A stretch of DNA of 64,000 nt from Promethearchaeota archaeon. GTDB lineage: Archaea > Asgardarchaeota > Lokiarchaeia > Sigyniarchaeales > SOKP01. Every line of letters starts with the position of its first letter. The first letter of the stretch is position 1. Below, one piece after another: positions 14,496 to 18,341 of this stretch. The position numbers and the translations under genes are program-made. The stretch lies in the NCBI GenBank assembly GCA_048940445.1, contig JBHLON010000013.1, positions 15,817 through 79,816 on the forward strand, given 5' to 3'. The notes beneath the pieces are model-generated. The model searched no databases. It saw only the letters and a program-made list of their open reading frames with translations, and had not been told where the DNA came from.

Positions 14496-15113
14496 ATGAG
14501 TAAGCAAAAGAGAGAAATCAAATTGTTTGATAAGTGGCCTTATACTGATATGGAAATCAGTGATTGGACTCTAGAAAAGTATATTAATTTAAAACCAGTC
14601 ATTATACCTCACTCAGCAGGCAGACATGAACATAAAAGGTTTTGGAAAACTTCACGAGTCTCTATTATTGAAAGGTTTGTTAATAGATTATTAGCACCAG
14701 GTTTTATCGGAAGTAAAATAAAGGGCCATAAAAGCTCATACAACTCAGGTAAAAAAAGTAAATTATTAACTAGCATTAAAGATGCATTTACATTAATAGA
14801 ACTAACTTCTGGCAAAAATCCAATTCAAGTGCTCGTAGATGCTATTTGCAATACAGCGCCCAGAGAAGAAACTACTAGAATAGCGATGGGAGGCATTTCT
14901 TATGCATCAGCGGTTGATATATCTCCTCAACGTCGAGTAGATTTAGCAATTAAATATTTGGTTCAAGCTATTGGCTCTAGAGCCCATTCTAATGTGAAAC
15001 AATTTGAAGAAAACCTTGCTCAAGAGCTAATTTTAGCAGCAAACAATAGTCAAGATTCAAGAGCCATAAAACGCAAAGATGAAATTGAGAGAATAGCAGT
15101 TTCTGCTCGTTAA
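14496..15113 (+). CDS. rps7: 30S ribosomal protein S7 (uS7)
   Basis: NPIQVLVDAI..APREE, AVDISPQRRVD, ERIAVSAR. Confidence 0.99.
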   Translation: MSKQKREIKLFDKWPYTDMEISDWTLEKYINLKPVIIPHSAGRHEHKRFWKTSRVSIIERFVNRLLAPGFIGSKIKGHKSSYNSGKKSKLLTSIKDAFTLIELTSGKNPIQVLVDAICNTAPREETTRIAMGGISYASAVDISPQRRVDLAIKYLVQAIGSRAHSNVKQFEENLAQELILAANNSQDSRAIKRKDEIERIAVSAR

Positions 15114-15346
15114 TTAGAAATTATTCTAAATTAAACTCAATTCTTAATTATTATAAAGCTCTCTTCAAATTTCACTTTTTATAATATTTTAAAAATATAA
15201 ATATATTATCTGGATATTATCAGAATTAGTATAAGGCTGTATTTCTCCTAAATTTTTATATATTGCAAAATTCATAATTTAGTTAATCAAATTGAAAGAA
15301 ATCTTACGATTTTGATAATAACTTAGGATTCGACAAAAAAACCTCT

Positions 15347-17260
15347 ATGATCGAAAGGCATTTACGGATATTAGGACAGAAAGTTAGGATTGATATCTTA
15401 AAGAAGTTGGATAATAGTTTAGTACCATTATCTTTTTCAACTCTTCAAAAAGAAATCTGTGATCTTAATCAAAGTAATATTAATTTATCGTTTCATTTAA
15501 GGACTCTAAAGGAAGCAAATTTGATAGAATCCATAGAAGAAGGCTATCAAATCACAATTTTAGGAAAAAAAATTCTGAATAATATCATCTTAATGGAACA
15601 AATCCTGAATGCCCAAAATAAAACGATTATGATAAGAACCTCTAAATATTCTAAAGAACCGTTTAATATTAAAAAAATTGAAGAATATTTGATAAGAGAG
15701 GGAGAAATGGAAGAATATCAGGCAAAACAAATTGCAAGTGAAGTTCAAGAGCGTCTGAGTAAAACTAAAATAGATTATCTTACTGCTCCTTTAATGAGAG
15801 AGTATATTAATGCAATATTATTAGAAAATGGATTGGAGAAGGTGAGACATAAACTTACTAGATTGGGGACACCCCCATATGAAGCTATTGCTCTATTTGA
15901 AGATGCTGCAGTGAATCCAGAACAGTTTCTGGAGAGATTGGGCTCTGATGTTTCTGAACAATTGCTTCTATTAAACTTTTTGCCAAATCCTTTAGCGGAC
16001 TTATATTTATCTGGAGAAATAGTATTTTTAAATTTAAATCAGTGGGCCTTAAGACCTTTAAGTTTCTATATTAATACCGAATCAATATTAAACTATATCA
16101 AAAAGTCTGGCTCTTTAAAGATTGGAGAGCTTTCGACTTTATTTGAATATGTAAGGGTAATTCTAGAATTCCATAATACAATTTCGCTATTTAAACCATT
16201 CTTTTCGGGAGATATGGTCCTTGGTAATTTTGACAGACATTTTCTCTCCCATATTCCTTTTAAAAATCAAGAATTAATTAACTTGTTGGTAAATCAACTT
16301 TGTAACTTAAGTAAATCGATTACACTAGATTTTTCTTGCGAATATAATCATCATCTAAATGAATTATTCTTTTTATCTTTAAATTCGCTTATAGATTCCA
16401 AAGAAAATAATAATATCCCTTTAGTTTTATTAGATAATTCTAATTTAAACATGTTTGAATCTAATCTATTTTCCTGTAAACTAATCCCCAAGTTAAAAAA
16501 TAGCTTTATTTTTTGTAATAAAAACTCATGTTTATTGAATTCCTCAATTATTAATTTAAAATTAAACCATACTTGCAACCTTTCTAATAATAAAATAGTG
16601 TTAGATAAAATTTTAATTAATTTACATTCAATAGCTCTACAGAGTAATCAAAATGATGATATATTTTATGAATTAATTACTGATCGGTTGAGCAAATTAT
16701 TTGAACTTTATAAGATTAAGGTACAATTAGTATCCAAGAAATTAAGTCCATTAAGAGAATGGGAGAAGGTAACACAATCATTCTTTAATGACAAAGGGCT
16801 AAGTTTATTAAAGAATTCTATAAAATCTGTATCATTCTTTGGATTAAATAAAGCCGTAAAAACACATTGCGGAATTGAACTTGATCGAATTGATACGAGC
16901 CATAAATTTGCTTTAAAAGTTATTACATTAATGAATAAAATTGTTAATGAAACAGCACAAGATGAGAATGAAAATTATATCCTAAGTCAACCACATAATG
17001 ATGAGTACTTATATACACCTACTAATATTATTAATACTGGGTTAGAAGAAGAAGAATTTAAAGGCTACTCAATGAATATTATAAGAACAGAATCAAATTT
17101 ACCTCTGGAAAACCAAATCTCGCTCTTTAAAAAATTTGAATTAAAACTCAACGGTGGGGCTATTTTTAATTATTATTTGGCTGAAAATGACCAACAAGCA
17201 ATAAAAAACTTCATTGACGTAGTAGGTAGATCGAAGTTATCTGCATTTCGCTTTTATTAA
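15347..17260 (+). CDS. ArsR-type wHTH + ATP-cone + degenerate class III ribonucleotide reductase (NrdD)-like protein
   Basis: N-terminal RIDILKKL..LSFSTL..LSFHLRTL..LI...Y.IT.LG; ATP cone IRTS...EPFN..KI...LTAPLMREYINAILLE.G...TRLG.P; NrdD-like SFFGLN.AV and NGG; no C-terminal Zn-Cys or glycyl-radical motif. Confidence 0.8.
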   Translation: MIERHLRILGQKVRIDILKKLDNSLVPLSFSTLQKEICDLNQSNINLSFHLRTLKEANLIESIEEGYQITILGKKILNNIILMEQILNAQNKTIMIRTSKYSKEPFNIKKIEEYLIREGEMEEYQAKQIASEVQERLSKTKIDYLTAPLMREYINAILLENGLEKVRHKLTRLGTPPYEAIALFEDAAVNPEQFLERLGSDVSEQLLLLNFLPNPLADLYLSGEIVFLNLNQWALRPLSFYINTESILNYIKKSGSLKIGELSTLFEYVRVILEFHNTISLFKPFFSGDMVLGNFDRHFLSHIPFKNQELINLLVNQLCNLSKSITLDFSCEYNHHLNELFFLSLNSLIDSKENNNIPLVLLDNSNLNMFESNLFSCKLIPKLKNSFIFCNKNSCLLNSSIINLKLNHTCNLSNNKIVLDKILINLHSIALQSNQNDDIFYELITDRLSKLFELYKIKVQLVSKKLSPLREWEKVTQSFFNDKGLSLLKNSIKSVSFFGLNKAVKTHCGIELDRIDTSHKFALKVITLMNKIVNETAQDENENYILSQPHNDEYLYTPTNIINTGLEEEEFKGYSMNIIRTESNLPLENQISLFKKFELKLNGGAIFNYYLAENDQQAIKNFIDVVGRSKLSAFRFY

Positions 17261-18181
17261 TTAATCTGATAGAAGTTCAGCTAGAATTGCTTTTCTCATA
17301 GGTATTCCATAATAGGCTTGTCTAAAATAAATAGCTTTATCTGAACTATCTATTTCAGGAGAAATTTCTGTCACTCTTGGTAAAGGATGCATAATTTTAA
17401 AATTATTTTTAGTAATTTTCAGATCTTCATTGGTAAATATATAGAAGCTCTTTACCCGATCGTATTCTTCCACATCAGCAAATCTTTCCTTTTGAATTCT
17501 AGTTACATATAAAATATCTAAAACTTTTAAAATATCTCGATATTTCTCAACTTCCTTATATTTTACTTTCCTTTGTTGTAACAATTCCTTATCTCTATTT
17601 CTTAGCATTAAATCCTTGGGACTTATAAAGTAAATATTAACATCAAACTTTGACAATAAAATTGCAAGTGAGTGAACAGTTCTGCCATATTTCAGATCTC
17701 CCATAATACCTATATTTAAACCATCTATTTGGCCTTCTTCTTCATTAATTGTGAGCAAATCTAATAAAGCTTGAGTAGGATGTTCACCACTTCCAGATCC
17801 TGCATTTATTATCGGAACTCTTGCAAATTTTGCAGCTAAAGTAGCTGCTCCTTCCAAAGGATGCCTAATAACGATACAATCACTATAGTTTTCTACTGTT
17901 CTAATAGTATCAGCAATACTTTCTCCTTTCTTTATCGAAGACGCATCTGCTGATGAAAATCCAATAACTTCTCCTCCTAATCTGTGCATAGCAGATTCAA
18001 AGCTTAAGCGCGTACGTGTAGATGGTTCAAAAAATAAAGTTGCGAGTATCTTTCCTTTAAGAAGATCCAGATTTTTGTCATTTTGAAGCATTTCCTTAGC
18101 CTTTTTTAATAAATATTCAATATCTTCTCGATCGAATGTTCTAGCAGTGATTATACCTTCTTGAAATTTCTCTTTGAACAT
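17261..18181 (-). CDS. pyrB: Aspartate carbamoyltransferase catalytic subunit
   Basis: FFEPSTRTRLSF, HPTQALLD, GDLKYGRTVHS, MHPLPR. Confidence 0.99.
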   Translation of the reverse strand: MFKEKFQEGIITARTFDREDIEYLLKKAKEMLQNDKNLDLLKGKILATLFFEPSTRTRLSFESAMHRLGGEVIGFSSADASSIKKGESIADTIRTVENYSDCIVIRHPLEGAATLAAKFARVPIINAGSGSGEHPTQALLDLLTINEEEGQIDGLNIGIMGDLKYGRTVHSLAILLSKFDVNIYFISPKDLMLRNRDKELLQQRKVKYKEVEKYRDILKVLDILYVTRIQKERFADVEEYDRVKSFYIFTNEDLKITKNNFKIMHPLPRVTEISPEIDSSDKAIYFRQAYYGIPMRKAILAELLSD

Positions 18182-18341
18182 AATTATACCTAATAAGAGT
18201 TTTATTAAAATTATGAATGAAAAATATAAATTCTTTTTTATTGGATAAGACTAAACTTATTAAGAAATTAATCAGAACTAATAAAATTTAAAATTTATAA
18301 AGAATTATCTATGTTATTCTAAAGAAAGAAGGTTATGACTA

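Follow-up and report, generated by a model that had tools for sequence, protein, structure and literature searches.

A winged helix on a dead anaerobic ribonucleotide reductase: a candidate nucleotide-responsive transcription factor in Asgard archaea

Is the gene at positions 15347..17260 (+) of the DNA analysed here an enzyme, as its label says, or has an enzyme been turned to another use? The DNA, hereafter the window, is a stretch of 64,000 nucleotides from a Promethearchaeota archaeon (GenBank assembly GCA_048940445.1, contig JBHLON010000013.1, positions 15,817 to 79,816), and the gene encodes a protein of 637 amino acids (aa). In source annotations this protein and its relatives carry the label 'anaerobic ribonucleoside-triphosphate reductase', that is, NrdD, the class III ribonucleotide reductase (RNR). 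An earlier note, made from the letters alone, had proposed a pseudo-enzyme that couples the nucleotide-binding allostery of such a reductase to DNA binding. We find that the protein is almost certainly a conserved pseudoenzyme and not the reductase that databases name, and that it is probably an undescribed regulator of nucleotide supply. More specifically, we give a probability of roughly 0.6 to its being a dimeric, nucleotide-responsive transcription factor built on a dead NrdD dimer, comparable with the bacterial repressor NrdR and of separate origin.

The open reading frame (ORF) is, as the earlier note had it, an intact run of 637 codons without an internal stop, and it is the only long ORF of its stretch. 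A winged helix-turn-helix (wHTH) domain occupies aa 1-90 (15347..15616, +), where Pfam DUF7347 (38.8 bits) and HTH_20 (28.4 bits) both match above their cut-offs over aa 6-79 and where a domain model agrees. Directly after this DNA-binding-type domain comes an ATP-cone (aa 94-166), which scores 27.7 bits against a Pfam cut-off of 25.8, and 31.9 bits in a six-frame genome search, and which together with the linker LTRLGTPP (aa 170-177) spans 15626..15877 (+). The remainder (aa 181-637; 15887..17257, +) is a dead NrdD-type α/β barrel, assigned by hhalign, the full-chain model and Foldseek, with a finger-loop remnant at aa 391-415 (16517..16591, +) placed by alignment with canonical NrdD. Pfam NRDD matches aa 422-632 at model positions 282-500 of 562 (54.7 bits); nothing in the protein corresponds to the roughly 60 positions at the end of the model, which cover the Zn ribbon and the Gly loop, and the barrel stops at its last strand (SAFRFY), exactly before the point at which the Zn ribbon of a real NrdD starts. 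All the motifs quoted from the sequence beforehand (TRLG.P, SFFGLNKAV, NGG and the terminal SAFRFY) are found in the protein. Most relatives begin about 8 codons earlier, many at TTG (M-x-SDK...); because the upstream codon that they use reads TTA here (window 15320-15349), we take ATG 15347 as the first usable start, and a 74%-identical relative (L049) begins at this same ATG.

The body of the protein is recognisably that of a reductase, a ten-stranded α/β barrel with an ATP-cone before it. A profile of 37 family members aligned by hhalign to the canonical NrdD of a congeneric genome (P0270, locus L004) with a probability of 99%, and the alignment starts at the ATP-cone and continues, collinear and unbroken, through the last barrel strand to end just short of the Zn ribbon. 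The AlphaFold2 model of the full protein has a mean predicted local distance difference test (pLDDT) score of 84.5, and its top Foldseek matches are NrdD structures (4con, 8p28, 9dca; E down to 1e-15), the matched solved enzymes being those of T. maritima, P. copri, S. thermophilus and phage T4. A search of the PDB with the whole protein by sequence returned no matching chain. Together with the Pfam match these results uphold the NrdD-like body that the note had described. With the solved NrdDs (T. maritima 4COI-4CON, P. copri 8P23-8P39) and with P0270, the protein shares the ATP-cone, the TR(L/I)G.P linker, the barrel fold and its strand order, the NLxxxA and GLNEA strands, the GG motif and a predicted dimer interface.

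What it does not share with them is the chemistry. Canonical Asgard NrdDs carry the motifs RPFC, the QCCR finger loop, PAE, CxxC..CxxC and SRITGYY; in the 637-aa protein the alignment gives RPLS for RPFC and QPH for PAE, and the finger loop has shrunk to about half its canonical length, with LLNS where CC-R, the thiyl-radical motif, would stand. The radical-cysteine column holds N in 139 of 197 tail-less family sequences and never a conserved Cys, and the single Cys of the finger-loop remnant, C397, is not kept even in an 85%-identical relative. Looking specifically for the finger-loop cysteines, as the note had advised, we found the thiyl-radical Cys and the second Cys both lost: Cys stands at both catalytic positions in none of 242 wHTH-bearing full-length proteins, against 7/7 canonical NrdDs. 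The note had further held that the Zn-binding Cys cluster and the R(V/I)xGY loop were missing, and this is borne out by a chain that ends at NRDD model position 500 of 562; a hidden Markov model (HMM) of the Zn ribbon and glycyl-radical tail has no match in 197 of the 242 wHTH proteins, the window protein included. The protein thus differs from NrdD in lacking the thiyl-radical Cys, its partner, the PAE Glu, the Zn ribbon and the glycyl-radical loop, in its halved finger loop and in its added N-terminal wHTH, and it fails the NCBIfam NrdD equivalog models by a wide margin (TIGR02487, 29 bits against a cut-off of 326; NF006732, 23.8 against 657).

Could it nevertheless still be an enzyme, either an RNR whose radical or other cofactor is supplied in trans or the seat of some new, non-radical nucleotide chemistry? 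The source annotations as a reductase, a barrel fold retained under purifying selection, an HCGIE.DR motif (aa 507-514) that is invariant in the subfamily, and a free-standing NrdD tail ORF of 91 aa in one congeneric genome all speak for this. The missing cysteines and PAE Glu, the halved finger loop and the equivalog scores speak against it, as does the conservation of the barrel, in which the clade has no conserved residue of its own, every one being common to canonical NrdD. The HCG of the motif is limited to the Loki-type subfamily, other compared forms reading mostly HTG or a variant, and the free tail occurs in 1/18 genomes of the genus. With the thiyl-radical Cys missing, a radical from a separate protein would find no residue through which to work. 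We therefore rejected a radical in trans on this ground and on the rarity of the free tail; the note had asked about a tail encoded as a separate subunit, and there is no consistent supply of one. Retained catalysis of any kind seems very improbable. The free tail itself (L061:2371-2646, -; G016:C66) consists of the NrdD Zn ribbon and an SRVTGYY loop only, occurs alongside a complete canonical NrdD in the same genome, and could be a spare radical domain or a gene remnant.

The work of the enzyme is covered elsewhere in the same genome, where a canonical NrdD, NrdG and two class II-like RNRs are predicted to make deoxynucleoside triphosphates (dNTPs). The C-terminal 84 aa of the canonical NrdD lie at the start of contig C24 (L002:1-255), with Zn ribbon and SRITGYY intact and with the same downstream neighbour as in relatives; NrdG scores over its curated cut-off; and two proteins have a class II-type RNR_Alpha domain, one of them with an ATP-cone. 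The note had reported NrdG and a canonical tail as missing, which is true of the locus and fails for the genome, both being encoded elsewhere (contigs C10 and C24). The six-frame genome search found no NrdR-like free ATP-cone protein, the only other cone being that of the class II-like RNR protein. In three genomes of the sister family (G026, which is closed, G019 and G030) no canonical NrdD was found, although the wHTH form is present in all three, and therefore the wHTH protein can do without canonical NrdD as a partner. The class II-like RNR of G026 (L062:597-3269, -; G026:C1) is a protein of 890 aa with RNR_Alpha, an RNR-II insertion domain and a weak barrel match; its N-terminal part matched the canonical NrdD ATP-cone region in a genome search, and its C terminus has leucine-rich-repeat matches. 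If the reductase label is taken at face value, metabolic reconstructions will assign a class III RNR to organisms that may lack it, and the closed genome G026 is an example.

If not an enzyme, then what does the N terminus suggest? Modelled in isolation, the wHTH reaches a pLDDT of 94.5 and shows the order α1-α2-α3-recognition helix (aa 47-56, NLSFHL..LK)-β-hairpin wing-long α5. Its Foldseek neighbours are mostly DNA-binding regulators, among them ArsR (6j05), YodB (5hs9, template modelling (TM) score 0.74) and HxlR (3df8), followed by SmtB, CzrA, BigR, HlyU, the DNA-bound NolR (4omy), PadR and MarR; TM scores rise to 0.74 and the E-values are weak (3e-3) because the domain is small. The domain falls below the cut-offs of the ArsR family (NF033788, 29.7 against 55 bits; Pfam HTH_5, 18.6 against 22), and hence the description 'ArsR-like' given in the note stands for the fold and the recognition-helix pattern and not for membership by the NCBIfam ArsR/SmtB model. 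Set beside ArsR 6J05, SmtB 8QKF, CzrA 1R1U and NolR-DNA 4OMY, it has the same α1-α5 topology, an S.HL..L-type recognition helix and a long C-terminal helix (TM 0.6-0.74); it differs in its NCBIfam score, in its Pfam family (DUF7347) and, by analogy, in its sensing module, which would be the ATP-cone and barrel instead of a metal site. There is no Cys cluster in this winged helix, and thus no NrdR-type Zn ribbon.

Between head and barrel the cone retains its sequence character. Clade-wide, the β-hairpin residues R97-T98-S99 and also E104 and F106 are conserved in 93% or more of sequences, and FRTEG stands at the corresponding place in a congeneric canonical NrdD. Judging by PDB titles, whether an ATP-cone NrdD is a dimer or a tetramer depends on ATP and dATP. 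For the barrel (aa 181-637), a symmetric homodimer was predicted with a score of 0.72, against 0.00 for the best of 3 controls, a mark that is reached by 20/30 proteins solved as pairs of one chain and by 1/23 solved as single chains; contact agreement between runs was at least 94% and partner pLDDT at least 81. The predicted interface (aa 181-206, 231-236, 265-285, 309-320 and 464-472) includes the conserved LGSDVSEQ block, and two of its parts, aa 181-206 and 231-236, are conserved blocks of the family. Since NrdD dimers have been solved, the pass may reflect likeness to them only.

We used the relatives to examine whether the gene is maintained and which of its parts are maintained most strictly. 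A search of 5.8 billion proteins gave 476 relatives, of which 120 were listed, and an all-against-all representative search gave 619. Full-length relatives among the matches listed are 635-671 aa long with the same architecture, all without the tail, and come from metagenome-assembled genomes (MAGs) labelled Promethearchaeota/Loki-, Hod-, Hermod- and Odin-. A profile of wHTH plus cone found full-length matches in 68/68 genomes of the window's family, in 7/7 of the sister family and in six further Asgard families; in the remaining families its matches run from the cone onward only and are ordinary NrdD only. The ratio of nonsynonymous to synonymous substitution rates (dN/dS), taken pairwise over 11 close pairs and four segments, was 0.04-0.34 in the wHTH, 0.04-0.18 in cone plus linker and 0.15-0.50 in the two barrel halves, that is, below 1 in every segment with the strongest purifying selection on the wHTH and the ATP-cone. 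The gene is not decaying. The note had argued this from the intact ORF, and its suggested survey of homologs for tail loss, with dN/dS, gives the same answer. A recent truncation or assembly artefact was rejected on the 476 relatives, the full-length ones listed being of like length, and on conserved synteny.

Across 45 diverse clade members, the residues conserved in at least 80% of sequences fall in the head at R14, H50, Y67 and G73 (recognition helix and wing), each at 96% or more, and in the cone and linker at R97, T98, S99, E104, F106, E118, R136, R151, E152, R167, T171-G174 and P176; in the barrel they are those also found in canonical NrdD. R97, F106, E118, R151, R167, R172, G174 and P176 are invariant clade-wide, most of them common to the canonical NrdD cone, so that the ATP-cone is the most conserved part of the protein, and the linker LTRLGTPP to the barrel is likewise invariant. 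With conserved residues concentrated in the head and the cone, selection is therefore strongest on the head and the sensor.

More distant relatives suggest how such a protein arose. The note had named relatives with a retained radical loop as a possible objection; close relatives are without the tail, whereas distant ones, 30-35% identical, keep the Zn ribbon and a degraded loop. These distant wHTH forms (700-800 aa; Jord/Freyarchaeia, Atabeyarchaeia, Odinarchaeia and others) have the loop Gly in about half of cases, reading A, S, N, T, P or L in the others, and they too are without the catalytic cysteines. In a quick maximum-likelihood tree (IQ-TREE, midpoint root, SH-aLRT support), all NrdDs without a wHTH form one clade (100) and the Loki-type tail-less forms another (99). 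A second dead paralog of the same genome, without a wHTH, is sister to the canonical NrdD of the genus (99), which indicates a separate, later loss. On hhalign and this tree the wHTH family appears to branch from archaeal NrdD, with a wHTH in the place of the Zn ribbon, and the separate origin from NrdR that the note had supposed is thereby supported. Stages of a transition from enzyme to regulator seem to have been kept: Zn-ribbon forms beside an intact nrdD, forms with a degraded Gly loop, and fully tail-less forms.

Taken together, a DNA-binding-type head and a nucleotide sensor kept under the strongest selection on a barrel that has lost its catalytic residues point to the transcription factor proposed above. 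Those predictions of the note that computation could check were all borne out. In such a mechanism, the barrel would form an NrdD-like homodimer holding two wHTH-cone modules; ATP or dATP, possibly other nucleotides, would bind the cones and change the orientation or oligomeric state of the heads, as in NrdR and ATP-cone-bearing NrdDs; and the changed heads would alter DNA binding at the promoters of nucleotide-supply genes. Among possible targets the likeliest would be the gene's own promoter, with its tandem repeat at 15203-15223, and pyrB, joined, in ancestral forms at the least, by nrdD. Ligand binding, DNA binding, the targets and the sign of regulation are all properties that we infer for the 637-aa protein.

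NrdR is a bacterial RNR-specific repressor composed of a Zn ribbon and an ATP-cone (PMC9110341). The window protein resembles it in having a DNA-binding-type head directly before the cone and, by analogy, in the expected logic, by which a nucleotide-dependent oligomeric state would control DNA binding at nucleotide-supply genes. Autoregulation is common for NrdR, and the window gene has a conserved private element in its own promoter. The two differ in that the head here is a winged helix, the protein is four times longer and a whole dead NrdD barrel is kept, and in that the paired boxes which stand upstream of RNR genes in the case of NrdR were not found here, in a search with the own-promoter repeat only.

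The surroundings of the gene offer a second line of evidence on its role. The stop at 17258-17260 abuts the stop of pyrB, the aspartate carbamoyltransferase (ATCase) catalytic chain, at 17261-17263 on the minus strand (17261..18181, -; an ORF whose orthologous neighbours carry OTCace_N and OTCace), so that the two genes converge, and a 233-nt spacer separates rps7 (14496..15113, +) from the gene. Its placement after rps7 and against pyrB, with no room for a tail, is accordingly as first described. The ribosomal gene is the last of an upstream block rpoA1-rpoA2-L30e-NusA-S12-S7, which is followed by the gene, pyrB on the opposite strand, L44e-S27e, TFS, PCNA and PriL-PriS, as seen in three MAGs labelled Lokiarchaeota, Hermodarchaeota and Odinarchaeota, the Hermodarchaeota MAG having other genes inserted. 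pyrB lies downstream in 19/19 relatives with enough sequence.

Over all 10 lineage contexts compared, a family member stands opposite or after pyrB in 7, in several Asgard classes and in both orientations. The wHTH form converges on pyrB in Atabeyarchaeia (L069), where pyrI adjoins pyrB, and at L073 (P0187), where pyrI is two genes further; at L071 (P0152) pyrB is directly upstream on the same strand with a 1-nt gap. At L072 the wHTH gene (P0176) is followed after 277 nt by an intact nrdD, a thioredoxin gene and a convergent pyrB, and this nrdD has every catalytic motif (RPFC, QCCR, SPAES, the Zn ribbon and SRITGYY). Near the wHTH genes of L068 (Jord), L070 (Odin) and L075 (P0183) there is neither pyrB nor an RNR gene. 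This gene order fits an origin by tandem duplication of nrdD beside pyrB, and also fits a continuing functional tie to nucleotide supply.

A tight link to pyrB that is independent of orientation would suit a physical partnership as well, and we considered whether the protein is a non-DNA-binding regulatory or scaffold subunit, pairing with an active RNR (canonical NrdD or class II-like) or with ATCase and using its wHTH as a protein-interaction module. Dead paralogs often regulate active relatives, canonical NrdD and a second dead paralog are both encoded in the genome, the barrel is predicted to keep an NrdD-like dimer interface, and pyrI (PF01948) was not found in the 93%-complete window genome, in which pyrB is present. 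The three sister-family genomes in which no canonical NrdD was found show, however, that NrdD is no obligate partner, and the Atabeyarchaeia and L073 relatives, with pyrI near pyrB, show that the protein is not a simple PyrI substitute. In the wHTH, moreover, conservation is highest in the recognition helix and wing, and most structural neighbours of the domain bind DNA; we regard a scaffold of this kind as unlikely.

The upstream block raises another alternative, in which the protein is a nucleotide-gated DNA-binding protein with its main role elsewhere, in chromatin, in replication or at neighbouring information-processing genes (ribosomal proteins, TFS, PCNA, primase). The Loki-type gene is embedded in the conserved block rpoA-L30e-NusA-S12-S7 ... 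L44e-S27e-TFS-PCNA-PriL-PriS, and no RNR-promoter motif was found. The block is not kept, however, around the Atabey, Jord, Odin, L072 and L073 relatives, among whose lineage contexts it is adjacency to pyrB or nrdD that recurs, and the protein descends from an RNR whose activity sensor it has retained. Such a role elsewhere has, in our estimate, a small share of the probability.

The 233-nt spacer upstream of the gene contains a conserved candidate site. Two 8-nt direct repeats with an 11-bp period, ATATTATC-TGG-ATATTATC (15203..15223, +), form an element that in relatives reads ATATCACCyAnATAwTATC (18-20 nt, repeats one helical turn apart). About 22 nt further downstream comes an archaeal B recognition element (BRE)/TATA, CTCCTAAA + TTTTTATATA (15245..15262, +), which is predicted from sequence and conservation. 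The repeat element is present in 19/19 orthologous promoters whose flanks are not alignable, at -121 to -125 from the start codon in most (full range -101 to -147), and a block TTCCT-AAtTtTTAtATA is conserved in all aligned promoters. Transcription would start near 15285, about 25 nt downstream of the BRE/TATA, as judged from spacing only. The gene thus seems to have its own conserved promoter, and the tandem repeat is a candidate operator, which would make for autoregulation, or an upstream activating site.

Scanned with a position weight matrix over the 3.6-Mb genome, the repeat has its top match at its own promoter (18.4 bits), the only site above noise. Exact matches occur only at the own promoter in 4/5 congeneric genomes and are otherwise at control level; the promoter copy in G011 lies outside the search pattern, and one extra exact site occurs, in G008. 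The element around the predicted transcription start is too AT-rich for scanning. The 10-mer TTCATAATTT at 15271-15280 stands about 20 nt downstream of the TATA of both the window gene and pyrB in the window's lineage, the pyrB promoter lying in the pyrB-L44e spacer (18182-18341); we do not count this sharing as evidence, since the genome is 70% A+T and the match was noticed only after the fact. The canonical nrdD of the genus (L004-L015) has a conserved promoter about 220 nt upstream and a leader of about 150 nt with the invariant blocks GGTAAAATATTAACGATAA, GCCGACAAAA and TATAAGAATATTA, and this may be a structured leader or a regulator site.

Several of these observations weigh against a nucleotide-responsive transcription factor. 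No regulon follows from the repeat. Neither the sequences preceding nrdD, nrdG, the class II-like RNR genes and the second dead paralog nor those preceding the Jord, Atabey and Odin homologs gave a match to it, and it could belong to another factor; a direct repeat is, in addition, unusual for ArsR-type dimers. The link to pyrB is positional only in the window, because convergent neighbours share no promoter, and 3 of the 10 lineage contexts have neither pyrB nor an RNR gene near the wHTH gene. The cone, for its part, clears its Pfam cut-off only just, and its profile matched no PDB chain by sequence, which leaves this cone type without a solved structure there.

We advance only tentatively, and at somewhat less than even odds, the further proposal that the protein is the Asgard counterpart of NrdR, in which a whole RNR homodimer serves as the sensing body and couples nucleoside triphosphate (NTP) and dNTP pools to pyrB and to ribonucleotide reduction. 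Sensing would then involve the activity cone and perhaps a specificity site at the conserved dimer interface. Asgard archaea are the closest prokaryotic relatives of eukaryotes, and to our knowledge nothing is known of how they regulate dNTP and pyrimidine supply; a core gene, present in all 68 sampled genomes of its family, offers a concrete candidate regulator. No description of the wHTH-NrdD family was found in a full-text literature search, and the one Asgard paper met there that mentions nrdD concerns Tn7 attachment sites. If the transcription factor proposed here is confirmed, it would show plainly how an essential radical enzyme has turned into a ligand-sensing transcription factor, with intermediates still present in sister lineages. 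Inactive RNR large-subunit homologs kept for a regulatory role exist in betaherpesviruses, as M45/UL45. They resemble the window protein as an RNR catalytic subunit without catalysis that is kept for regulation, and differ in deriving from class I R1, in acting by protein-protein contacts in host signalling and in having no DNA-binding domain.

The comparison of NrdD genes brought several minor observations. The second dead paralog of the window genome (L001:1-1695, = G000:C135, at the contig start) is tail-less and Cys-less, has no wHTH, reads RLYS for RPFC, has no CC-R and ends ...IKIIE, with 194 bits to Pfam NRDD; it occurs in several congeneric genomes as a protein of about 600-630 aa. The gene that follows it encodes a protein of 469 aa in which a P-loop GTPase-like motif is seen. 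The canonical nrdD of the window genome is broken across contig ends (L002:1-255, G000:C24; L001:1-60), and contig C135 begins inside an ATP-cone segment almost identical to that of the canonical NrdD cone, so the assembly probably collapsed at the paralogous nrdD repeat. Two full-length NrdD-like proteins of 692-742 aa (L023 and L024; G024:C28 and G028:C66) have kept the tail and lost both catalytic Cys; in place of the radical Gly they have D or N (SKITDYY, SKITNYY), and neither genome yielded a canonical NrdD. Finally, the canonical NrdD frames of L019 and L020 (G014:C211 and G013:C36) are 1186-1189 aa long with an NRDD match split into positions 1-98 and about 45-562, as would be expected if a large insertion, perhaps an intein, lay early in the barrel.

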